Shown one piece after another: positions 3,380-18,704 of a DNA stretch of 24,662 nt. This stretch comes from a virus (taxonomy: Duplodnaviria; Caudoviricetes), in the IMG/VR virus record IMGVR_UViG_3300009773_000010. The stretch is one strand, 5' to 3'. Numbering within the stretch: the stretch's first letter is position 1; the number at the start of each line of letters is the position of its first letter. Both the position numbers and the translations under genes were made by a program. The notes under the pieces are model-generated. The model did not search any database and was not told the DNA's origin. It was given only the letters and a program-made list of their open reading frames with translations.

Positions 3380-4051
3380 CTAATCGCTGTACGCTCCGGT
3401 GTACTCGAGGTAGATGCCGAGCAGCTTCGCATCGACGGCCAGCGTCCCTTGCTTGCGGTACGCCTTGAACACGACCCATTCCCCTCCGGCCGGGGTCCCG
3501 GCCAGCGTTACTGCGGAGCCGGTGATGATGTGCAGGGCATTGGCCGACTGGAAGGCGTCCGATGCCTCCACTGCGGTACCAAGTGCCTGATCGAGCGATT
3601 CGCCGTCGCCGAAGGAACGGCCCTGAATGCCCCATATCACAGTGTTCCCGGCGGTACCTGATGCCGCCGTCCAATAGAAGCGAGGGACGAACGTGCCGGC
3701 ATTGTAGCCGTCCGGCAGAACGAAGCCCCAGGAATCATACTCCTGCGTGCTGGCGTCAAAATTGGCCGTAACGACCATGATGTCGTTGGTCGGCAGCTCC
3801 AGCTTCGCGGCCGGGGCGCATCCGTTGGTCGTATTCGGCGTCCCGCCCCCGGCCGAGAGGAAGATGGGCTTGACGGCGGCAGGGAGCCTATCCTTGTTGA
3901 TGGTCCCGGTCAATTGCGAGGCCGCCACGGCCAGATCGCCGGCCGCCAGGTCGTCCTCGATGCAATCGGCCTGGGTCTGCACATGGTTGCCCCAATCGGC
4001 CGTCAATTCCTGCCCTATGCTCCTGGTCTGCTCCACGAACGAGTTGGTCAT
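3380..4051 (-). CDS. Tail fibre/tip protein with C-terminal beta-sandwich domain (223 aa)
   Basis: Start moved to ATG 4051 (ATGA overlap with the upstream stop, GAGGTG RBS). N-terminal ELTADWGNHVQ resembles fibre attachment motifs; the C-terminus is beta-rich. Confidence 0.65.
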   Translation of the reverse strand: MTNSFVEQTRSIGQELTADWGNHVQTQADCIEDDLAAGDLAVAASQLTGTINKDRLPAAVKPIFLSAGGGTPNTTNGCAPAAKLELPTNDIMVVTANFDASTQEYDSWGFVLPDGYNAGTFVPRFYWTAASGTAGNTVIWGIQGRSFGDGESLDQALGTAVEASDAFQSANALHIITGSAVTLAGTPAGGEWVVFKAYRKQGTLAVDAKLLGIYLEYTGAYSD

Positions 4052-4878
4052 GCTGACTCCCACCTCATGATCGCCACTACCTGCGCTCCCTTCCCTACCT
4101 CGATCTCATACGGCCCCGGCGTGATCAGGCCCCGAGCGAACAGGGCCGGGACGGATACCGGCGGGGTGCCGGTGTTCGTATCGAAGTACACCCCGGCCTC
4201 GGCCAGCGTCGATCCGTTGTACTGGTCCGGGGCGATGGTATAATAGAGCGTGAGCTGGCCATCGGCCGATGCGGTTGAGGCCAGGGGCAACGGGGTCATG
4301 GTCCAGGGATCCGCTAGCCCAGTATCGGCCACGCTCTCGGATACGGTACCCTGGCCGCATAGGAGCGCCGTTAGCTTGATGGTGTACGCACCCTCGCTGT
4401 TCGCTAGCTGCGCGAACATGAGGCATCCCAGGCGGGAATTGGTCCCGCCGAATACCACGTCGAATTGGAAGATATAAGCGAAATCTGCGGTCTTGTCGAG
4501 GTCGTCGATCACCACGCGGGCGAAGGCATTTCCAGCGGTGGCCGGCGCTATCCATACCTCGCGGATGGTGTGCCCGTTCAGTTCATCCTCGTTTATCTGC
4601 TGGACGGCCCGGAATCGCACCCCGTTGACGTACTTGGTCGTCACCTCGGAGCATAGCAACGGCGTCTGCCCCCACGTTTGGGATGGGACCACGGCGGTAC
4701 CGGAGGAGCCGACGCCGATAGCCTCCAATCTGAATTCGTTGCCGAGCATGGCGTCCCGCAGCATGTTCAGCCCCGTCGATAGGACGGCATTATGCGCCCG
4801 ACGCACCAATTCCTTGCGACCATCGCGGCCGAGGCGGTACACCAGGACGTTGCAGTACACGCGGGAACGGACGATCAC
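4048..4878 (-). CDS. Tail-tip structural protein with two tandem collar-fibre-like domains (276 aa)
   Basis: Start moved to GTG 4878 (GTGA overlap with the hub stop). Domain 1: HNAVLSTGL..IGVGSSGT..IREVWI. Domain 2: LLCGQGT..DTGL..LAEAGVYF. Similar to the 17236-17787 protein. Confidence 0.7.
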   Translation of the reverse strand: MIVRSRVYCNVLVYRLGRDGRKELVRRAHNAVLSTGLNMLRDAMLGNEFRLEAIGVGSSGTAVVPSQTWGQTPLLCSEVTTKYVNGVRFRAVQQINEDELNGHTIREVWIAPATAGNAFARVVIDDLDKTADFAYIFQFDVVFGGTNSRLGCLMFAQLANSEGAYTIKLTALLCGQGTVSESVADTGLADPWTMTPLPLASTASADGQLTLYYTIAPDQYNGSTLAEAGVYFDTNTGTPPVSVPALFARGLITPGPYEIEVGKGAQVVAIMRWESA

Positions 4879-6287
4879 CAGAAGGCCGCCCCCCCGTCGA
4901 ATGTGGAGCCGGAGCCGGCCCCGTCGCCGAATACCGCCTGGGGGCGGGATATGACGGAGAAGGTGTGGCTCATCACCACGGTGGCCTCCACCTTGCCACA
5001 TTGGGTGATGGTTTCGTCCTCCCTCTCCTCGTACTCCTGCCGGCTCGTCAGCATGCGGTAAAACTCGACCCAATCCTCCCGGCGCTCCCCGGTCACGCCC
5101 TCCACCTTGTAGGATAGCGATAGGTCCGCGTCCTCACGCTCCTCCGCTTCCACGGATGTGATCAGGATCTGCGTATCGATGCCGTAGTCCGTCAGATGCA
5201 CCGGTATCACCATGCCCGCCCGGAGGCCCGGCGCATAGGTGCTGAACTCCGCATCCAGCTTATCGTAGGGATTCTGCTTCATCTCCGTCTCGGCCGCCGT
5301 TACAGCCGCGTCCAGGTACGGGATGCTGGAATCGTCCACGAAGGTTTCATAGCGCCCATGCTCGGCGATGCTGGCCTTATCCTCTAGCATGACCATGATG
5401 CCGAACGTCCCCACGTAGGTGATGGCCAGGGTGTCCGAGGCCGTCAGGACTGTCCCTGCGTCATCCTGACGGATGATCTTGTCACCCTCGTTCCAGTACC
5501 AATCGAAGCCGGATTCGACCCCCCATATCCCTACGGTCTTGCTGACGCCGTTCACCTTGATGGTCGGCTCATGCAATACCTTGAAACGGACCTTGAACTC
5601 CGTCCGGGTGCCATCGCCCACCATCGATTCCGTCCGCTCGTCAGTGATGCCCTTGGCCGAGCCCCGGTAATAGACCACGTTGCAGAAATCGTCCAGGGAT
5701 TCCTCGATGCTCAGGCTGATGTAGTCCTGATTGTCGTCAGTGATGGCGAACGGCGCGACGTAGGACTCCTTGGCAATGAAATGCAGCTTCTTCTGATGGT
5801 CAATGAACCAGATGTAGCCCTCGCGGTCGGCCATCTCGTTCAGCACATCCGTCGCCGATTGCCCGTTGTACTTTACCTTTGATACCGTCCCGCCGGCCTC
5901 AATGGTCCCGGCGGTGACGCCATACTGCGCCAGCTTGGTCGTGATCAGGTCCCGCACTATGGCGTCCGACGTGGTATCCGCATACGCCTTGAGGACATGG
6001 GCGCGGTCGGCGAGGGCCGAGAAATCGGTGAACTTTACGGTCCACTCCATGATGTCCGAGCCCGGGATCATCTTCCGCTTGGCCCGGTACACGATGCCGC
6101 CGAAGGCCGTCTGCGCCTTTTCGGTATCGTAGAAATAAACCTCGTCGCCCTTGTACGGCCGCCACGCGCTCCCTTGGTGGAAGGTGAGCCCGCCGATGGT
6201 CCTGGCCCCCAGCGTGGACTTGAGCGAGGTAGTGCCGGGCACCGTTAGCCCGTCCACATTGGTCCCGTTGATGGTCACCTGGTACAT
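4875..6287 (-). CDS. Baseplate hub / Tal-like tail protein
   Basis: 470 aa directly after the tape measure. Hub-like patterns PYKGDEV..FGGIV, IVRDLI, LNEMADREGYIWFID..LHF, GLRAGM.I.V. Confidence 0.75.
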   Translation of the reverse strand: MYQVTINGTNVDGLTVPGTTSLKSTLGARTIGGLTFHQGSAWRPYKGDEVYFYDTEKAQTAFGGIVYRAKRKMIPGSDIMEWTVKFTDFSALADRAHVLKAYADTTSDAIVRDLITTKLAQYGVTAGTIEAGGTVSKVKYNGQSATDVLNEMADREGYIWFIDHQKKLHFIAKESYVAPFAITDDNQDYISLSIEESLDDFCNVVYYRGSAKGITDERTESMVGDGTRTEFKVRFKVLHEPTIKVNGVSKTVGIWGVESGFDWYWNEGDKIIRQDDAGTVLTASDTLAITYVGTFGIMVMLEDKASIAEHGRYETFVDDSSIPYLDAAVTAAETEMKQNPYDKLDAEFSTYAPGLRAGMVIPVHLTDYGIDTQILITSVEAEEREDADLSLSYKVEGVTGERREDWVEFYRMLTSRQEYEEREDETITQCGKVEATVVMSHTFSVISRPQAVFGDGAGSGSTFDGGAAFW

Positions 6288-11005: not shown

Positions 11006-11791
11006 TCAGGCTGACGACTCTAGTCGGACGCGACCGGTAGGATGCACCATGGCCGAGAAGCGGAGGATCGATGCAAAGGAGGATCGATGCTGGGATACGA
11101 AGGCATCGAAATTGATGGATAGCCCTATCTCCGAGGGGAACCGGACCTCGCAGGGCCTGATCACGCCGGACGTCGCCTCGGCGAAGAAGGAAAGGGATCC
11201 TCCTTCCTTACGGAGGGTGCCGACGATCTCCATGGGCTCGAAGCCCGGCTTCCCCGGCTTGTACTCCTTGAACGGGGAGGCCCGATACGATACGTCCCTC
11301 GCGTCCACGTAGGCGATGAGGTCCCCAAGGCTGAGGATCTCCGCTACCTCGGCCCCGTTCCAGTAGAACTTCGTCCCGGCGGCCAGTGTGCCCATGGCAT
11401 CGAAGGATAGCAGGACGAGGAAGTTCTGCCCTATGATGAAGGCCCCGCTTTCGTCGGTACCTAGCGGCATAGGCTCCTGCATCGCCTTCACGCCGAGGTA
11501 CTTCACGCCGGATATCGTGACATTCTCCATGGTCGTCAGGGCCGCCCTTGCCGCGTCCAGCCTAGCCCTGGCGGCATCGCTGTCGGTATCCCGCACCTGG
11601 ACCTGGAGGCCGGGGTGCAGGATCCATTTTCCGTCGAAAGTTACCTCCGGTACCTCGCCGGCATCGCCGAACAGGGCCATGCATACGACCGGATCATCTG
11701 GCATAAGGTCGCGGAATACGTTATCAACGGTCCCTGCTCCCTGCTCTATGATGTAGGATTGAATCTTCTCTATCCAATTGGTCAAATGCAC
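11006..11791 (-). CDS. Tail terminator-like protein fused to a tail-tube-like domain
   Basis: aa 1-130 resemble a terminator (PGLQVQVRD, PMPLGTDE..GQNF). From M133 the sequence resembles a tube domain (GTKFYWNGAEVAEILSLG..FKEYKPG..FDAFVS). Confidence 0.7.
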   Translation of the reverse strand: MHLTNWIEKIQSYIIEQGAGTVDNVFRDLMPDDPVVCMALFGDAGEVPEVTFDGKWILHPGLQVQVRDTDSDAARARLDAARAALTTMENVTISGVKYLGVKAMQEPMPLGTDESGAFIIGQNFLVLLSFDAMGTLAAGTKFYWNGAEVAEILSLGDLIAYVDARDVSYRASPFKEYKPGKPGFEPMEIVGTLRKEGGSLSFFAEATSGVIRPCEVRFPSEIGLSINFDAFVSQHRSSFASILRFSAMVHPTGRVRLESSA

Positions 11792-12162: not shown

Positions 12163-12482
12163 ACGTCCACCCGCCAGTACGCTAACTGCCCATCCAAATC
12201 GTACTGCGGGGCCACCAGGAGGATGATGGGCACGCTCCCGTCGGGGAGGATGATCTGGTCGCCGATCTCCACGGATGCGGTCCTATCCACGAATATGCGG
12301 GCATTGCTCACCTTCTCGAAGCGGTTCGTGAGGCCGTCCCCGGAGCTCGTCCGGACGAGGCGGGGCTTATGCTCCACCCTGGCCCGATACTCCTTCGGAG
12401 TGCCGTAGGTATAGTGGCCCTTGCCATCGTTCCCGGTCCGCTTGGCCACGGTGATCGTCTGATTGAGGAGGTCCTCTATCAT
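12159..12482 (-). CDS. Head closure protein (SPP1 gp16-like)
   Basis: 107 aa, beta-rich. LNQTITV..DGKGHYTYG..ARVE..GDQIILPDG. Follows the adaptor gene. Confidence 0.78.
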   Translation of the reverse strand: MIEDLLNQTITVAKRTGNDGKGHYTYGTPKEYRARVEHKPRLVRTSSGDGLTNRFEKVSNARIFVDRTASVEIGDQIILPDGSVPIILLVAPQYDLDGQLAYWRVDV

Positions 12483-13249
12483 GCATCCTCGCTGTAATTC
12501 GGGATCGTGCTGCCGTCCAATGCCAGCTCCGGCATGTCAGCGTCGCTCCTGGCCCGCATCGGCCCATCCTCGAAGGAATCCTGGTCCAGCAGCCGGGCCA
12601 GTTCTCGCTCGTATTCCTGCATGAAGGAGCTCGTCCCGCTAGGCTTGGCGTACTGGTAGTCGCCCAGCTTCTCGGTCTGCATGACGGTCCCGCCTCGCGC
12701 CACCTCGTACAGATGGAGGATGGCCAGCAGGTGCATGTGGTCGTAGGTGTCGGCCGGCACATCGTCCGGCAGATCATTATCGAGGTACACGGTCTTGGCC
12801 CTCGCGGCCAGGAGGTCGAACTGCGCCGAGGTGAACTTGGAGCCGGGCTCGTCGCTCACGGCATACTTGGAGCATAGAGCTACTTGAGCCGCCAGGCCGC
12901 TAGGCTGGCTCATGGCGACGGCCTTGGCCGTCAGCGCCCCGTAGGCCACGGTGTACACTTCGTCGGCCAGCGTGGTCATCACGACCTCCCATCGATACTC
13001 GCCGTTCAGGGCGGCGGTATCGGCCGGCGTCAGCACGATGCGGGTCGTTCCGGCGATAGGGCTCAGTATGGCTATGCCCTGGTTGATGGTCTTCTGTAGC
13101 TTCAGAACGCCGTACTTGTACACGTTGAAGGCCAGCATGTCGCCCGTCAGCCCGGTGAGATCGATGGCGTTCCCGTCATCGTCCTTTATAGGCATTTCAA
13201 TCGGTAGGGTATCCCCGGCCTTCACGCTCAGCGGTTGAGATTCTTCCAT
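12479..13249 (-). CDS. BppU-N-like Ig domain fused to a head-tail adaptor (gp15/DUF4054-like)
   Basis: aa 1-107: GDTLPIEMPIKDDDGNAIDLTG..LTPADT..GEYRWEV. C-terminal half: LLAILHL..TEKLGDYQY..SSFMQEY. Occupies the adaptor position. Confidence 0.7.
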   Translation of the reverse strand: MEESQPLSVKAGDTLPIEMPIKDDDGNAIDLTGLTGDMLAFNVYKYGVLKLQKTINQGIAILSPIAGTTRIVLTPADTAALNGEYRWEVVMTTLADEVYTVAYGALTAKAVAMSQPSGLAAQVALCSKYAVSDEPGSKFTSAQFDLLAARAKTVYLDNDLPDDVPADTYDHMHLLAILHLYEVARGGTVMQTEKLGDYQYAKPSGTSSFMQEYERELARLLDQDSFEDGPMRARSDADMPELALDGSTIPNYSEDA

Positions 13250-16200
13250 TCACATCCTCCTTCCTTTTCGTTCCCTCGATCTCCGCGTCATCCTCGATTC
13301 CGGTCAAATCCTCTCCGAATATCTGGCTCCGCATGGCGACGACGCGCGAGAAAATGCATACGGCCGTCTTGAGGGCAGTGGCCTCATCGGTGGCGATGCC
13401 TTCCGATTCGTATATGGATTTTGTCAGGGCCAGGGCATCGTCGAAGGATATGGCTTCACTGATCAGCATCGACTTCAGCAGCAGGCCGCTCTCCGTTAGC
13501 TCCAAAGCCTCACTGATCAGTAGCGCCTTGACCATCTTGGAGGCATCCGATAACTCGACAGTATCCCCGGCCAGGATGCCGTAGGTGGTGGCATCGCTGA
13601 CCCCTACGGAGTCGGGGGCGGTCAGGCCGAGGGCAATCGCGTCCAGCAGTCCGGCGTAGTCCTGCGTCCGTATGGCCCGGCCAATGACATCCTCGATCCC
13701 TATGGAATCGAGCAGCCGGAGGCCGATGTTCACTGAATCGTCATGGATGCCTATGGCGTCGAGGATGATGAGCTCCACCATCTCCCCGGCCCGTTCCACG
13801 ATGGTGGCGATGTCCTCGGCGGTTATACCGTCCGATGCCAGTAAAGATCTGATGAACACAGCCGCCTCCACCGCGGTAATGGCATCGGAGGCCACCATGG
13901 ATTCGAGCAGGGATACTGCATCCCCTACGGAGATGTCCTCGCCCTCGAAGATCTCCTTGAACAGCAGGGCCGCATCATCGGTGGTGATAGATTCCGAGGC
14001 CACTAGCGCCTTGAATATCGCCTCGGCATCTTCTACCTCTAGGGATTCGGTTGCGAAAAGGGCCTTCGCCAGCGAAACGGCATCAGAACCAGAGAGGGAA
14101 TCGTCCTCGATGATGCTCTTGACGATCGTGCAGGCATCGACTCCCGTTACTGTGTCGGCATCTTCGAGGGATTTTACGAGAGATATCGCTTCCCCGGCCG
14201 CTAGGGCATCTTCTGAGATCAACAGGGCCGTCAGCGCAGCAGTATCGGCCGTCCCTATCGTATCGGTGACGAGGAACAGGAGCCCGATAGCTAGCGATAC
14301 CGCGTCCTCCGCGGCGATCACATCGGCGCTCCGGAGCGAGGCGATGAGCCTCACTGATTCGGATACGCCGAGGGTATCGGCCTCGATGATGGCCTTGGCT
14401 ACCGCTACCGCGTCGCCGGCTGTGAGGACCTCGGCCGCGACGAGGGATTGAATGAGCTTGACGGCATCGGCGAGGCCTACGGCTTCCGATTCGACTATCC
14501 CCTTGACCAATGCCATCATGTCCGAGGCCGTCAGTGATTCGGCCAGCAGGACCGCCTTGCCTAATGGGGAGGCATCCACGGCCCCGATGGCCTCGGCGAG
14601 CTCCATGGTCTTGCCCAGCGCCTCGGCATCGGCCCCGGATATGCCCTCCGGCGTCCGGTAGCCCATGCCTACGCCCTCGGCGGCCGCTATGGCCTCGGCG
14701 GCCAGCAGCGCCTTGATGAGCTTCTGCGCATCGGCGAGGCCTATGGAATCCACCAGGGCGATGCCTAGCGCCGCCGGCCCCTCGGCAGCCGCCAATGAAT
14801 CGGTATCGAGGAGGGATTTGAGCATGGCGACGGCATCGGCGAGGCCGAGGGATTCCGCTATCGTGATCAGGGCGGTGATGCTCGTAGCCTCGGTCAATCC
14901 GATGCTCTCGGCTGCCTTCATCAATTTGGCGGCGATGAGCGCGGCATCGGCCGCCGTGATGTCATCCGCGTCCATGATGGATTTTATGAGCCATGGCGCG
15001 TCGGAATTGGTCACAACATCAGGGGTTCTTATGCCTAAAATGGCCCCGTTCTCGGCCATGGCGGCGCTATCTGCGATAAGCAGGGTCTTCGCTAGGGCCT
15101 CGGCCTCACCGGCCCCTATTTCATCCGCGTCGACCAGGGCCTTGATGAACATAACGGCCTCGGCGGTGACGATGCTCTCCCCCTCCACGATGGCCTTTAT
15201 CAGCAGGGCCACGTCCGCGGCCGATACATTCTCGGCCGTGAGCAGGGATTTGATGAGCGAGGGGGCATCCACCAGGCCCACGGCGTCCGGGGCGAGATAG
15301 GCTAGGATGCTCGGCCCCTCGGTCGCGGCGATGGCATCCACATCGAGGATTGATTTCAATAGCGAGGCCGCATCGGCCCCGGTGATCGTTTCGGCCAGCA
15401 GCAGGGCCTCTACTAGCTTCTCGGTATCGGCGGCCGATATGGCCTCGGCCAGGACGATGAGCTTGGCCGCGAACTTCGGAACATCGTCGGCCGCGATGCC
15501 CTCGGCGGCAATGATGGCCTCCACGATGCGGTGCACCTCCGCGCTGGATATAGTATCCGTTTGCAGGAGCAATTTAGCGGCGATCTTGTGGATCTCCGCG
15601 TAAGCTACCGCATCCCCCTCGAGGATGGATTTGGATAAGGGCGAGGCCTCGGTCGCGGAGATGGCCTCCGCGAAGTACGCTATCTTGGATAGCGGGCTGG
15701 CTTCCGAGGCCGCTATGGCCTCGGCATTGAGGAGGGCCTTGGGGGCAAAATATGGCGAATCAGCCGCCCCCACGGCATCAGGATCGAGCATGGTCTTGGT
15801 CAGCACCGGGGAATCCGTGCCGGCGATGCTCTCGGTGGCCGTCTTGTCATACTCATTGATGGTGCCCGGTATGTAGTATCCATCAATCCCGCATATCTCG
15901 TACGTCGCGTTGCTGGAATAGAACTGGATGATTCCACTGGCATCGGTCTTGGTGGGGCAGGTGAATCCGCAGTAGCCATTGTCCTCTGCCTCCATGGCCG
16001 GTAGGTACCGCGCCGCTGAGGAGCCCTTCATCCGCACGCCCACGTTCACCTCGCCCGAAACGAGGTTATGATTGCAGACGCAATCCACGACCTGGCCATC
16101 CGAGCCGATGTACGAGGTGCAATCCATGTCTGTCCAGGTATTGGCGCTGGTGATCGACGCGGCGCAGTTGCCCCGGTACCTATCGACGTAGCCCATGTTG

Positions 16201-16862
16201 GCATCGAATACGCCGGTGATGTACACATCGACGTAGGTGGTCGATTCGACATAGTACTCGATCTGGTTGCTGGCATCCGTCTTGGTGACCATCATCTGCC
16301 CGGTCACGCCGCCCGATTCCGCTTCGTGCAATTGCGTGGTCTTGTTATAGACCGCATCGCCGGAACGGACGCCGGCGCTCATCTTCGTAGTCGTCCGGTT
16401 ATTGCATAACGCGAAGGTGCAGACCCGGCCGGCGGCCGGGGAGTACGATGATAGGGAAACGTGATTGCTGGCATACGTCCCGCCGGACGTGGTGAGGGAT
16501 AGCTCCGCGAAATATTCCTGGTACGTCAGGCCCATCCAGTAGCCCATGATGTAGAACGCGGTATCGGTATGGTCCCCGGTATAGTACTCGATCTTCCCAT
16601 CCGCGCCCACCTGGACGTACCATCCGATGAGATTAGCGCCCCCATCCTCGGCCTCGGTCATGTTGAGGTACCGATCCAGGGAGGAGCCGCTAGTGCGGAG
16701 GCCCATGATGTTGTTGGCAGCATCCGCCAGGTTCGCGGCCACTATGTACACGATGGCCCTCGCAGGGATGCCGTTGTTGGCTAGGATGTCATACGAGGTC
16801 CAGGTGTCCGATGCGCTTATGGAGAGGGCCGTTCCCGCCACTTCCGTGAACGAGATCTGCAT
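13197..16862 (-). CDS. 1221-aa repeat fibre/ruler protein: three tandem beta domains + about 45 acidic 18-aa repeats
   Basis: Three N-terminal repeats of about 105-110 aa sharing G[LV]R..G..EAE..G..I[EQ][YF]Y..G. Residues about 340-1165 are built from K-x-h-h-x-x-[DE]-x-[IV]-x-x-x-[DE] units. Confidence 0.8.
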   Translation of the reverse strand: MQISFTEVAGTALSISASDTWTSYDILANNGIPARAIVYIVAANLADAANNIMGLRTSGSSLDRYLNMTEAEDGGANLIGWYVQVGADGKIEYYTGDHTDTAFYIMGYWMGLTYQEYFAELSLTTSGGTYASNHVSLSSYSPAAGRVCTFALCNNRTTTKMSAGVRSGDAVYNKTTQLHEAESGGVTGQMMVTKTDASNQIEYYVESTTYVDVYITGVFDANMGYVDRYRGNCAASITSANTWTDMDCTSYIGSDGQVVDCVCNHNLVSGEVNVGVRMKGSSAARYLPAMEAEDNGYCGFTCPTKTDASGIIQFYSSNATYEICGIDGYYIPGTINEYDKTATESIAGTDSPVLTKTMLDPDAVGAADSPYFAPKALLNAEAIAASEASPLSKIAYFAEAISATEASPLSKSILEGDAVAYAEIHKIAAKLLLQTDTISSAEVHRIVEAIIAAEGIAADDVPKFAAKLIVLAEAISAADTEKLVEALLLAETITGADAASLLKSILDVDAIAATEGPSILAYLAPDAVGLVDAPSLIKSLLTAENVSAADVALLIKAIVEGESIVTAEAVMFIKALVDADEIGAGEAEALAKTLLIADSAAMAENGAILGIRTPDVVTNSDAPWLIKSIMDADDITAADAALIAAKLMKAAESIGLTEATSITALITIAESLGLADAVAMLKSLLDTDSLAAAEGPAALGIALVDSIGLADAQKLIKALLAAEAIAAAEGVGMGYRTPEGISGADAEALGKTMELAEAIGAVDASPLGKAVLLAESLTASDMMALVKGIVESEAVGLADAVKLIQSLVAAEVLTAGDAVAVAKAIIEADTLGVSESVRLIASLRSADVIAAEDAVSLAIGLLFLVTDTIGTADTAALTALLISEDALAAGEAISLVKSLEDADTVTGVDACTIVKSIIEDDSLSGSDAVSLAKALFATESLEVEDAEAIFKALVASESITTDDAALLFKEIFEGEDISVGDAVSLLESMVASDAITAVEAAVFIRSLLASDGITAEDIATIVERAGEMVELIILDAIGIHDDSVNIGLRLLDSIGIEDVIGRAIRTQDYAGLLDAIALGLTAPDSVGVSDATTYGILAGDTVELSDASKMVKALLISEALELTESGLLLKSMLISEAISFDDALALTKSIYESEGIATDEATALKTAVCIFSRVVAMRSQIFGEDLTGIEDDAEIEGTKRKEDVNGRISTAEREGRGYPTD
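13370..15845 (-). repeat. Degenerate tandem repeat of about 18 aa (54 bp), roughly 45 units
   Basis: For example KALLNAEAIAASEASPLS / KIAYFAEAISATEASPLS / KSLLTAENVSAADVALLI / KAIVEGESIVTAEAVMFI. Unit length is 16-19 aa. Confidence 0.85.
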
Positions 16863-16866
16863 GGCC

Positions 16867-17226
16867 TCAGTCCTGCATCACCATTATTCTGGCCCTGCGG
16901 CAGAAGGCGGTCACACCGGCCTGACCGCTCCGGAATTGGAGGGTTAAAGAATGCTCCCCCTCGGTTAGCAGGACTCTCCCAAACGGAGAACAGATGCGGG
17001 GATCCTGCGCCACCAGGGGGCGGTAGGTTTCTTCGTTGACGACCTCGCCGTCCAACAGGATGCGGAGATAGACCGGGGTTTGGGCCAGGTTGCTCGATAC
17101 CTCTACGCACGTCCAGATATTGTGGTATCGGGCATTGGTAGGCCCGGCCGCTTCAACGACGGTGATCCACTCCCCCGTATCCGAGGTGAGCAGACCTTCC
17201 ACGACGTTGTTGGCGACGACGGTCAT
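16867..17226 (-). CDS. Hypothetical beta-sandwich virion protein (119 aa)
   Basis: GAGGT RBS, co-oriented and gap-filling. Contains LTEGEHSLTLQFRS, typical of small beta-sandwich domains. Confidence 0.7.
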   Translation of the reverse strand: MTVVANNVVEGLLTSDTGEWITVVEAAGPTNARYHNIWTCVEVSSNLAQTPVYLRILLDGEVVNEETYRPLVAQDPRICSPFGRVLLTEGEHSLTLQFRSGQAGVTAFCRRARIMVMQD

Positions 17227-17235
17227 CTAGCTACC

Positions 17236-17787
17236 TCACGAGAGGGTTACGTCCACTTCCATGGAGTAGCTATCGCTGGCCCCCTTGGTGCCCCACGCGC
17301 CTACCTTGCGGTTCAATCCGGTGCCGGTGCCGTTCCCGGTGAGGACGATCACTTCCTGCCAGGTGAACGATGCCACGCCGGCTGCGAAGGTGGATTTGAA
17401 CTGCACGGTCTGGCTGGACCGCTTGGGATAGGTGCTGTCCATGGCCGCATACGCCTTGTTGGTGGCGGCCTGGAGCGCGGTCTGTGTCGCGACGGCGGCG
17501 GTAGCGGAATCACCCACGCCGATGTACGGAGTGGCCCATGTGGGGGTGGTCTGCGCCCCGATGATGAGGTCGATGATCTGCGCGAGGCCCGCATTGAGGG
17601 CCACGTTGCCCTCGGTATCGACCTTGCCGAGGTAATCGCCGGCATCCTTGGCCATATCGATCACCTGCTGCTGAGGCATGCCCTGCTGGAGCATCTTGGA
17701 GTACTTGTTCTCCGGGTCGTAGAACCCGGTCCGCCTCATCTTGGTTTCCCAAATGTGGGTCTTTTCTGCCTTGTCGTGGATTGCCAT
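17236..17787 (-). CDS. Collar-fibre-like structural subunit (183 aa)
   Basis: Start moved to ATG 17787 behind a GGAGGT RBS. Motifs NVALNAGL..YIGVGDS..TQTAL..STFAAG..WQE..LNRKV..GTKG. Confidence 0.75.
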   Translation of the reverse strand: MAIHDKAEKTHIWETKMRRTGFYDPENKYSKMLQQGMPQQQVIDMAKDAGDYLGKVDTEGNVALNAGLAQIIDLIIGAQTTPTWATPYIGVGDSATAAVATQTALQAATNKAYAAMDSTYPKRSSQTVQFKSTFAAGVASFTWQEVIVLTGNGTGTGLNRKVGAWGTKGASDSYSMEVDVTLS

Positions 17788-17822
17788 GTCAATTACCTCC
17801 AAAATGAAATCATGGAAGTGGT

Positions 17823-18704
17823 TTAGATGGCCGTCAACGTGCAAAGCGCGTCGGCGTGCTTCACCCTCGGGAACAGGGACTCCCAGGTCCTGCCATAGAC
17901 TGGCGAGGTCTGCGGGTGCTTGCTATCGATGCCCAGCTCGTTCTTGGCATCGCTGGCCCGAACGAGGTCAAAGTAGGTGCCGGCGTTATCGACCGGGACC
18001 ATGAGGCCCTTCCCCGCCACGATCTTGGTGCTCTGGATCACGGTTCCAGGGTACGCGCCGGGTACGGGATTGAGGAGGCGCAGGACCTTCTGCATCTCAT
18101 CGATGCCGGTATCCTGGGACGCATCCAGTTCAGCGAACTGGGCGGGGTTGATGACGAGGTTGAAGTTCACCCCGTTGACCGCCTTCTCCCATAGCTTCGA
18201 TCTAGCGCCGGATACGGCCGCGATGGCGTTACCGAAGGTGCCGAAGTCCTTGCTCGTGGTGTAGGATTGCCCGGCCACGTTGTAGAGCCCCTTGATGACG
18301 TACTTGGCGTCGTCCTTGGGAGCCCATCCCTGGATGAGCAGGTCCTCCTCCTTCTCGGCCAGCTTGCGGGCGGCGTTAAGCATGGATGCACTCTCGATGT
18401 TGATGCCCTCGGAGGCGAAGGCCTCCAGGTCGCTCCGCACGATCTCGTAGTCCTTCCAGAGGAAGGGGAGCCGGAAGTTCTCGCGGGTGATGTTGATAGC
18501 ATCGCGGGAACCCTCCTCGCTCGGCATGCCGTAGGCGATCTGCGCCTCGTTCATGTCGCTGATCCTGTCCACATCGACGTTCCATTTGCCGGCGGGCAGG
18601 GTGTACACTTTCTGGAACAATCGCCGGGCGATGAGCGCCTGGCGAAGCGGCTCGACCATCTGGCGGTCGAGGTAATTCGCGGCCCTTTCTAGCGAGCTAG
18701 CCAT
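17823..18704 (-). CDS. Major capsid protein, HK97 fold, encapsulin/linocin M18-like
   Basis: 293 aa in the MCP position. Encapsulin-like motifs LIARR, LPFLWKDY..DLEA, LAEKEEDLLIQG..IKGL, LVINP, FDLV, WESLFPRVKHADALCTL. Confidence 0.9.
   Translation of the reverse strand: MASSLERAANYLDRQMVEPLRQALIARRLFQKVYTLPAGKWNVDVDRISDMNEAQIAYGMPSEEGSRDAINITRENFRLPFLWKDYEIVRSDLEAFASEGINIESASMLNAARKLAEKEEDLLIQGWAPKDDAKYVIKGLYNVAGQSYTTSKDFGTFGNAIAAVSGARSKLWEKAVNGVNFNLVINPAQFAELDASQDTGIDEMQKVLRLLNPVPGAYPGTVIQSTKIVAGKGLMVPVDNAGTYFDLVRASDAKNELGIDSKHPQTSPVYGRTWESLFPRVKHADALCTLTAI

Follow-up and report, generated by a model that had tools for sequence, protein, structure and literature searches.

An archaeal provirus locus with a candidate rope-and-bead neck whisker built on countable acidic repeats

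Introduction

A fibre architecture in which dimers of a small subunit are held along an extended rope is known from a few bacterial phages. In the Felixounavirus Bas63, whisker dimers sit 'like beads on a string' and the rope completes their incomplete sandwiches; the same paper links rope length to dimer number (PMC12609058). In Bas63 and the Mooglevirus Sf14, the rope is the N-terminus of the collar itself, and the stretch before Cys52 leaves at most ~50 residues for two dimers (PMC12609058, PMC11821841). In the Pseudomonas podophage A1002, 11 dimers (gp40/gp41) are carried by ~226 residues of the nozzle-rope gp39, and each forms an augmented beta-sheet with the rope at ~20 residues per dimer (PMC13730344). 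Fiber I of the Ralstonia podophage GP4 (PDB 8jou, PF23140/PF23148) consists, as reported in the Bas63 and A1002 papers, of a gp80 bead, a separate rope and the Ig protein gp77, with five dimers reported. Rope-type sheet completion has also been solved at the baseplate of Staphylococcus phage 812 (phi812), where linkers of the gp117 scaffold complete the sheets of gp118 segment dimers (PMC13433997). A different architecture is found in Anabaena phage A-1(L), whose ~100-nm neck fibre has trimeric beads and a distal carbohydrate-binding module and lacks a rope (PMC10966104). That rope length acts as a ruler is an idea stated in the Bas63 paper, and our literature search found no repeat-deletion test of it.

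Here, we analyse a window of 24,662 nucleotides (IMG/VR record IMGVR_UViG_3300009773_000010). A sequence-only reading had proposed that a long repeat protein encoded there sets the length of a whisker by donating one strand per repeat to a small subunit, a mechanism for which it knew of no description. Rope-and-dimer fibres have in fact already been solved (PMC12609058, PMC13730344); what is new is a widespread family of beads and ropes that is unrelated in sequence and has repeats that can be counted, together with an archaeal host, a tip predicted to be a single-chain C1q/TNF-like trimer and the fusion of a collar domain with a putative adaptor.

Results

Locus and gene layout

The virus is a provirus in a methane-producing archaeon, the methanogen assignment being based on mcrA. 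An att repeat and a flanking tRNA were sought around the provirus and neither was found, and a match to its major capsid protein (MCP) turned up in none of 23 further genomes from the same family as the host. Four minus-strand ORFs of 183, 119, 1221 and 256 aa lie where the sequence-only reading had located them, and the block is flanked by the MCP gene and a head-closure gene:

17823..18704, minus strand: HK97-fold MCP, given as context (Linocin_M18 1e-17, phrog_264)
17795..17800, minus strand: ribosome-binding site GGAGGT of the bead gene (from sequence and duplex energy)
17236..17787, minus strand: 183-aa bead subunit, ATG start (AF2, Foldseek, VIA; phrog_23653 1e-33)
16867..17226, minus strand: 119-aa protein, possibly a TNF-like lectin monomer (Atlas features, gene order)
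13197..16862, minus strand: 1221-aa rope, whole ORF
15858..16862, minus strand: rope residues 1-335, three predicted tandem jelly-roll domains (AF2, VIA)
13368..15851, minus strand: rope residues 338-1165, 46 acidic repeats (autocorrelation, motif count, unit alignment)
13197..13367, minus strand: rope C-terminal tail, putative collar-binding anchor (similar tails in related ropes)
12479..13249, minus strand: 256-aa protein with Ig domain and likely adaptor, whole ORF
12911..13249, minus strand: Ig-like collar domain, BppU/LtfC-like (phrog_1084 4e-12, Atlas structure rows)
12479..12910, minus strand: C-terminal half of the 256-aa protein, putative head-tail adaptor (position, Atlas leads)

The ribosome-binding site, previously described as strong, lies 7 nt upstream of the ATG; its duplex energy of -11.1 kcal/mol, computed with the standard anti-Shine-Dalgarno sequence, ranks third among 14 genes, which makes it strong though not exceptional. 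Elsewhere in the provirus, an apparent duplication within a 293-aa tail protein was not significant by BLAST.

The bead subunit

The AF2 model of the bead has a pLDDT of 92. The top nine VIA rows are all tail or neck proteins of phages or archaeal viruses, with unrelated rows at Z 3.0 or below, and the highest score, Z 9.7, belongs to one docking domain of the HFTV1 hub. Within a Z range of 7.9-8.0, labelled by VIA as possibly a common arrangement, the model matches the phi812 arm segment (Z 8.0, rmsd 4.0, 106 aligned), GP4 Fiber I 8jou_a (Z 7.9, rmsd 2.9, 116 aligned; Foldseek E 4.7e-3) and Listeria A511 gp105 (Z 7.9, rmsd 3.2, 101 aligned). A weak match is given by a Bas63 connector chain (Z 4.5, rmsd 2.7, 80 aligned), which we take to be the whisker from its chain length alone. 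The predicted bead belongs to the fold class of T4 gp8, A511 gp105, the phi812 arm segment and GP4 Fiber I, a fold also seen capping tail fibres. As in chain-like fibres, a free-standing small subunit thus carries the Fiber I/whisker fold, in a predicted model and at middling Z; since the matched proteins are rope- or scaffold-threaded dimers, they were counted towards a rope-and-bead fibre.

At the sequence level, the bead falls in phrog_23653, annotated 'unknown', and its conserved residues are K111, K131, R160, K168, D93, D117 and E145. None of 89 bead sequences matches PF23140 (Gp80) over the family cut-off, and a single one matches PF12571 (tail-collar N-terminal), at E 0.011, too little to place the bead in that family. 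No sequence link was found between GP4 gp80 or the KPP25 fibre proteins and the bead/rope system, and a PDB sequence search with the bead profile, the tip and the putative GP4 rope returned no matches.

The rope repeats

Over rope residues 338-1165, 46 units of ~18 aa align with the consensus K-x-L-h-x-x-[DE]-x-I-x-s-x-[DE]-A-x-x-L-x, in close agreement with the ~45 acidic units counted before. At lag 18 the identity autocorrelation reaches 0.226, whereas 300 shuffles gave no value above 0.141 at any lag, and the acidic spacing reported earlier as [DE]-x-[IV]-x-x-x-[DE] recurs as 48 occurrences of [DE]x[ILV]xxx[DE] versus 6.5 expected. The repeats are indeed of neither collagen nor heptad type: collagen, RTX and tandem hexapeptide patterns are absent from the rope (no match to GGxGxD, tandem [LIV][GAED]xx[STAV]x or (Gxx)n, and none in Pfam), and lags 7 and 11 are low. 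Hydropathy has periods of 3 and 6 residues and not a clean beta alternation. TRF at the DNA level detects no repeats in the rope gene, so that the repeats appear old and diverged. In variant contigs ~89% alike from two other runs the length of the repeat region is conserved; no clean change in repeat number was found among those compared, joints inside the rope being ambiguous. No RNA data set was listed among those containing the sequence. The tail holds four h-x-G units spaced 9-10 aa, and related ropes carry similar short-repeat tails. A PDB search with the repeat profile matched only a low-complexity eukaryotic protein, and tblastn of the repeat region against annotated phages gave no match. 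An argument for a two-fold dimer from palindromic repeats was discarded, being weak once selected columns were removed (flank mirror symmetry 0.58 vs 0.56).

Tip domains and the 119-aa protein

The three domains that had been proposed as a tip lie in tandem at the rope N-terminus and are homologous to one another (E 1e-12 to 1e-4), and 418 relatives were found for them. The AF2 model of residues 1-335 (pLDDT 93.6, pTM 0.93) packs three jelly-rolls as a C1q/TNF-like trimer, a likeness at the level of fold only, and VIA aligns it with single-chain APRIL/BAFF, C1q and adiponectin trimers at Z 14.6-12.2 over ~310 residues. The rope N-terminus is predicted to form a single-chain C1q/TNF-like pseudo-trimer, likely an adhesin tip. 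The 119-aa protein, with six homologues, resembles the Bc2l-C_N cluster in Atlas features (0.95) and is possibly a TNF-like lectin monomer serving as accessory head or cap; no link to the tip domain was found. Its gene is optional, being absent between bead and rope in locus L124.

The collar and adaptor protein

The anchor half of the previously proposed anchor-adaptor fusion is recovered as an Ig-like collar domain (phrog_1084 4e-12; Atlas structure rows BppU_N and LtfC-like) that is not PF23148. For the adaptor half, neither Pfam nor PHROG gave a match; its assignment derives from position, as no other adaptor gene lies between MCP and head closure, and from Atlas leads to PF05135 and PF07030, both at 0.89. 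In L124 the Ig is a free-standing 114-aa gene after the rope. An independent Ig-adaptor fusion occurs in locus L052 (phrog_442 4e-34), with an Ig cluster related to the provirus Ig (hhalign probability 85%), and the same fusion lies two locus tags from a bead homologue in P0243.

Family survey

The bead family was found in 523 confirmed viral stretches. Co-occurrence was counted in 60 loci that remained after dereplication and had 2.5 kb or more on both sides. With a repeat profile trained on the same loci in which repeats were counted, a repeat protein of 4-45 repeats was found near the bead homologue in 47 of 60 loci, adjacent in 35; three or more repeats occurred in 0 of 1225 shuffled ORFs and in 1 of 1294 host ORFs, the rope itself. 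A fixed-pattern test detected repeats in 70 of 84 loci versus 1 of 84 shuffles. An extended rope with a period of ~18-20 residues thus lies beside the subunit, as in chain-like fibres, both in the provirus (46 repeats) and in these 47 loci, which supports the gene co-occurrence proposed as a check. Twenty-eight of the 60 loci have small Ig-like genes in the interval from -4 to +5 genes. Probes for MCP or tube, meant to supply control loci, returned nothing or identical copies only.

Fifteen of the 60 loci are in the head/neck region, 5 near terminase/portal and 6 at the tail end, while 34 were not placed; some bead homologues follow tape-measure genes or are part of a Dit-like fusion. Repeats stop at most 101 aa from the C-terminus in 50 of 54 ropes, and N-terminal domains are interchangeable (42 ropes, 29 clusters). 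Beads that are more alike tend to go with ropes of more similar repeat style (Mantel rho 0.50, n = 54; 0.24 for pairs below 60% identity), with kin not independent. In the Rhodococcus phage Shagrat the bead homologue has on one side two ropes, of 13 and 11 repeats, and on the other a fibre-tail adaptor of the GP4 gp77 type (PF23148 1e-28, match to 8jou_D); the gp77 family also adjoins a bead homologue in locus L114. Other cultured carriers are Methanobacterium virus PhiF1 and Bacillus phage SP-15. An apparent bead-rope fusion in locus L111 was an assembly-gap artefact.

Discussion

We consider it probable that the four genes encode a chain-like rope-and-bead neck whisker whose length is set by repeat number. 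The 1221-aa protein would be the rope along which dimers of the 183-aa protein thread, likely about one per 18-aa repeat, and in that case repeat number would set whisker length. Each repeat, as an extended strand in the bead groove, would complete the bead beta-sheet, with its two invariant acidic residues likely meeting conserved bead Lys/Arg. Below the head, the Ig domain that is fused to the adaptor ring would hold the C-terminal tail in place, and the N-terminal single-chain trimer would form the attachment tip at the far end, a polarity suggested by the C-terminal repeat ends, the variable N-termini and the A1002 precedent. The mechanism first proposed is probably right, though completion of bead sheets by a rope strand is already described in GP4, Bas63/Sf14 and A1002, fibres in which more beads go with a longer rope. 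The likeness to pili is an analogy only.

A close parallel is A1002 (PMC13730344), which shares a C-terminal rope anchor, a distal N-terminal globular domain, a similar residue spacing (~20 versus ~18) and beads of 147-171 aa, comparable to the 183 aa found here. It differs in having 11 dimers versus 46 repeats, a nozzle anchor, two bead types and a bacterial podophage context; there is no significant sequence match, and the rope of its relative KPP25, unlike that of the provirus, has no significant periodicity. GP4 has the same three parts, but its putative rope is rich in Gly and Ala, repeats every 20 aa and is not acidic, five dimers are reported for it versus 46 repeats here, and its gp77 differs from the phrog_1084 Ig fused to an adaptor. 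Bas63 and Sf14 share the neck site, the Ig collar at the adaptor and rope-completed dimers (PMC12609058, PMC11821841), whereas their rope is part of the collar, carries two dimers and lacks a tip. Phage 812 and A511 share the bead fold (PMC13433997) but are myophages with a baseplate location and six dimers, whose linkers fill inter-dimer gaps; the accessible text reports no regular repeats. A-1(L) resembles the provirus in its long neck fibre with a distal binding module.

It is improbable that the repeats instead make a self-folding stalk, be it a beta-roll or a beta-helix (with three sides of 6 residues, or as a Ca-bound roll), and that the bead is a docking domain present in few copies, in the manner of a tail-collar N-terminus. 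The 6-residue sub-period in autocorrelation and hydropathy would fit such a stalk, as would the HFTV1 hub domain being the best bead match and a D-x-G-x-G-x-D core in 371 of 795 family units, which recalls Ca-binding rolls; yet GGxGxD occurs in only 4 of those 795, the provirus rope lacks RTX and hexapeptide patterns and has Ile at the Gly position, spacing ranges from 16 to 24, and the bead is a free-standing gene with a strong ribosome-binding site that adjoins ropes of 4-45 units. Even less credible is an 18/5 alpha-helical stalk of Ala-rich repeats: 18 residues do make five helical turns and the repeat region is ~20% Ala, but the alpha-helical harmonic has a hydropathy power of 0.02 (provirus) and 0.06 (family), and many homologues are Gly/Ser-rich. 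As for the site, a rope-and-bead fibre anchored at capsid vertices or the tail tip is about as improbable as the self-folding stalk. The bead gene directly behind the MCP, the homologues near tape-measure genes and in the Dit-like fusion, and the adaptor half without HMM match are in its favour, whereas the place of the Ig domain, after the rope and joined to the sole adaptor candidate, the independent Ig-adaptor fusions, and the solved collars of GP4 and Bas63 at the adaptor argue for the neck.

For the rope-and-bead whisker, the solved cases point to a dimer of beads on each repeat, so that the bead:rope ratio is probably ~90:1 and not the 45:1 expected earlier. The putative GP4 rope, by our own assignment, has ~12 periods of 20 aa, which, set against the five dimers reported, would fit one monomer per repeat. 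The whisker would measure ~125-280 nm (46 beads at 27 Å to ~60 Å each), where 27 Å is the A1002 average (300 Å / 11 dimers) and ~60 Å corresponds to 18 aa at the rise of a fully extended strand. The predicted length is about four times that of the longest solved example we found.

In a bolder and rather doubtful version, up to twelve such ruler-templated whiskers extend from the adaptor ring of the virus and equal or exceed its tail in length, and the acidic-repeat family is a second, digitally countable tape measure tuned independently of the tail. Each virion would then carry ~1,100 bead subunits, more than capsid protein, and the family, with 4 to 46 or more repeats and interchangeable tips, would span archaeal and bacterial viruses. 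Because the repeats can be counted, the ruler idea becomes directly testable. All in all, a fibre architecture known from a few bacterial phages would gain members among archaeal viruses and in a large family that lacks annotation, which points to a possible attachment device in methanogen viruses and to a protein filament whose length may be programmable.

Operon setting and host

The window carries the minus-strand structural operon of a tailed provirus, which comprises terminase, portal, MuF, scaffold and HK97-type capsid genes, the four genes in question, and closure, terminator, tube, tape measure and hub genes. The four genes encode a 183-aa subunit (the bead), a 119-aa protein, a 1221-aa repeat protein (the rope) and a 256-aa fusion of an Ig domain with a probable adaptor; all are intact, and the coordinates and lengths given by the sequence-only reading are correct. 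The provirus sits in contig C1, part of a 2.4-Mb genome containing mcrA, and the host is therefore a methanogen; the capsid gene had 0/23 matches among other genomes of the host family. Contigs from two other runs, about 89% alike, cover the entire repeat tract with unchanged length.

Features of the window
17236-17787 (-), bead
13197-16862 (-), rope: N-terminal tip (residues 1-335), then acidic repeats of about 18 aa
18706-19605 (-), 299-aa gene before the MCP gene, no Pfam or PHROG match; its product is likely a decoration protein carrying a domain insertion
11006-11791 (-), tail terminator (PF12691, residues 13-124) with about 130 extra fused residues, tube-like by eye
4048-4929 (-), tail-tip ORF of uncertain start codon
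1-2253 (-), ORF that extends past the window edge (751 aa or more); by eye, parts of it are beta-helix-like and glycoside-hydrolase-like; candidate receptor-binding or depolymerase protein

The rope and its tip

The acidic repeats are far above chance: their lag-18 autocorrelation is 0.226 (300 shuffles gave no more than 0.141), and their motif matches 48 times where 6.5 are expected. Alignment yields 46 units spanning residues 338-1165. Collagen patterns are absent from the rope, as had been claimed, and a motif search found neither RTX nor tandem hexapeptide patterns in it. An autonomous beta-roll or beta-helix gains something from the 3/6-residue hydropathy period of the repeats but fails its motif tests, and a hydropathy power of 0.02 leaves an alpha-helical stalk with almost no support. 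The rope is the longest among the bead loci surveyed, and ropes sharing its tip elsewhere measure 1400-1640 aa. In P0120 and P0247, ropes of about 2240 aa have the same N-terminal tip and repeats until about residue 1300, after which beta-helix-like domains replace the anchor tail.

The three tip domains are indeed present and mutually homologous. The confident tip model (pLDDT 93.6) aligns along about 310 residues with single-chain trimers of C1q, adiponectin and APRIL/BAFF (Z 12-15), and the tip is N-terminal in all 11 of the 150 tip relatives that also carry repeats. A monomeric rope with a fused pseudo-trimer would suit a filament of one chain better than a trimeric fibre. Language-model features of the 119-aa protein score 0.95 to TNF-like Bc2l-C N-terminal lectins.

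The bead subunit

The protein search gave 90 bead relatives, and 523 viral stretches were confirmed. The bead model (pLDDT 92) matches components of several phage and viral structures with middling Z, unrelated rows reaching at most 3.0.

Structural matches of the bead model (Z; rmsd; residues aligned)
HFTV1 hub domain: 9.7; 5.4; 132
phi812 arm segment: 8.0; 4.0; 106
A511 gp105: 7.9; 3.2; 101
GP4 Fiber I: 7.9; 2.9; 116
Bas63 connector chain of 96 residues, whisker identity by length alone: 4.5; 2.7; 80

Pfam Gp80 matched 0/89 family members and hhalign to GP4 gp80 and KPP25 ORF7 gave no significance; no sequence link to these proteins was found. The bead residues K111, K131, R160 and K168 are basic and nearly invariant, and could pair with the two invariant acids of the repeat.

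The first half of the tail-tip ORF at 4048-4929 is bead-like (phrog_5417, 3e-10; hhalign probability 66%), the second half seems by eye another bead copy, and the hub gene upstream has a short C-terminal acidic strand (residues ~420-450); together they may amount to two beads dimerised within one chain, on a rope with one repeat.

Co-occurrence of bead and rope

Dereplication of 130 bead loci at 80% bead identity left 84 groups, 58 with a repeat protein. The co-occurrence of subunit and repeat genes, named as a check in the sequence-only reading, was found in 47 of the 60 loci with at least 2.5 kb on each side, the repeat protein directly adjoining the bead in 35 and having 4 to 45 repeats. 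At least three repeats occurred in 0/1225 shuffled ORFs and 1/1294 host ORFs (the rope itself), with a profile trained on the same loci that it counts and a survey started from bead loci; a fixed pattern instead of the profile gave 70/84 loci versus 1/84 shuffles. For three of the 13 loci without repeat protein, a general test detects a neighbour with a period of 18-20; four of the 13 lie at the tail end.

The cultured archaeal Methanobacterium virus PhiF1 (L002, 8827-13754) has two bead paralogues, recalling the two bead types of A1002, and a 1165-aa rope of 18-aa repeats. In Bacillus phage SP-15 (L003, 6242-13160), baseplate wedge genes whose C-termini hold a few repeats precede a bead gene, a bead/repeat pair used in a baseplate arm. 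Locus L001 (6119-7180) encodes a Dit-like tail protein with five repeats fused at its N-terminus. Short beads of 125-126 aa go with longer 20-21-aa repeats (L104, L109, L113, L114), and the repeat period may vary with the form of the bead.

Proposed anchor and genomic position

The 60 loci lie at head/neck (15), terminase/portal (5) or tail end (6), with no position for 34, the scan of neighbours having covered 87 of their 404 clusters. Anchoring of the fibre elsewhere than at the neck is a less likely alternative. A small Ig-like gene is nearby in 28/60 (labels partly by eye), and in phage Shagrat a true GP4 gp77 homologue adjoins bead and ropes. The Ig domain of the window is phrog_1084. In L124, a close relative, this type is a separate gene; P0243 has it as a fusion, and in L052 an Ig domain from a related cluster is joined to a phrog_442 adaptor. 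The other half of the 256-aa protein had no HMM match and is assigned as adaptor from position and Atlas leads. Repeats end near the rope C-terminus in 50/54 ropes, with short repeated tails there. The N-terminal parts of 42 ropes form 29 clusters; tips are thus swapped, and bead and repeat remain paired.

Comparison with known fibres

According to published accounts, the collar rope of Bas63 is wrapped by whisker dimers in bead-on-string fashion and completes their sandwiches, a longer rope in GP4 carries five dimers versus two in Bas63 (PMC12609058), and the ~300 A rope of A1002 holds 11 dimers, each making an augmented sheet, in a fibre with an Ig domain at its distal end (PMC13730344). Accounts of phi812 (PMC13433997), Sf14 (PMC11821841), phiKZ (PMC13250141), A-1(L) (PMC10966104) and HFTV1 (PMC12494034), together with PMC13252515, were also consulted. 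A search of literature open without subscription found neither an archaeal rope-and-dimer fibre nor a deletion test, and no description of this family of acidic repeats.

Residues 243-468 of the A1002 rope serve 11 dimers (PMC13730344) and the Bas63/Sf14 rope offers at most ~50 residues for two, as Cys52 lies in a globular domain (PMC12609058), which gives 20-25 residues per dimer. A candidate GP4 rope, with about 12 periods of 20 aa, a 10-aa half-period and five reported dimers, points against one dimer per repeat, unless only part was resolved. One bead dimer per repeat is nonetheless the stoichiometry that we favour, with some reserve.

All in all, the mechanism proposed in the sequence-only reading, in which the repeats would bind beads and set the filament length, is probably correct but had already been solved in other systems. 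The window rope is predicted to be about four times the longest among the solved rope-and-dimer fibres found, and its putative fibre differs from them in its sequence-unrelated beads, regular acidic rope, archaeal host, C1q/TNF-like tip and probable collar-adaptor fusion.
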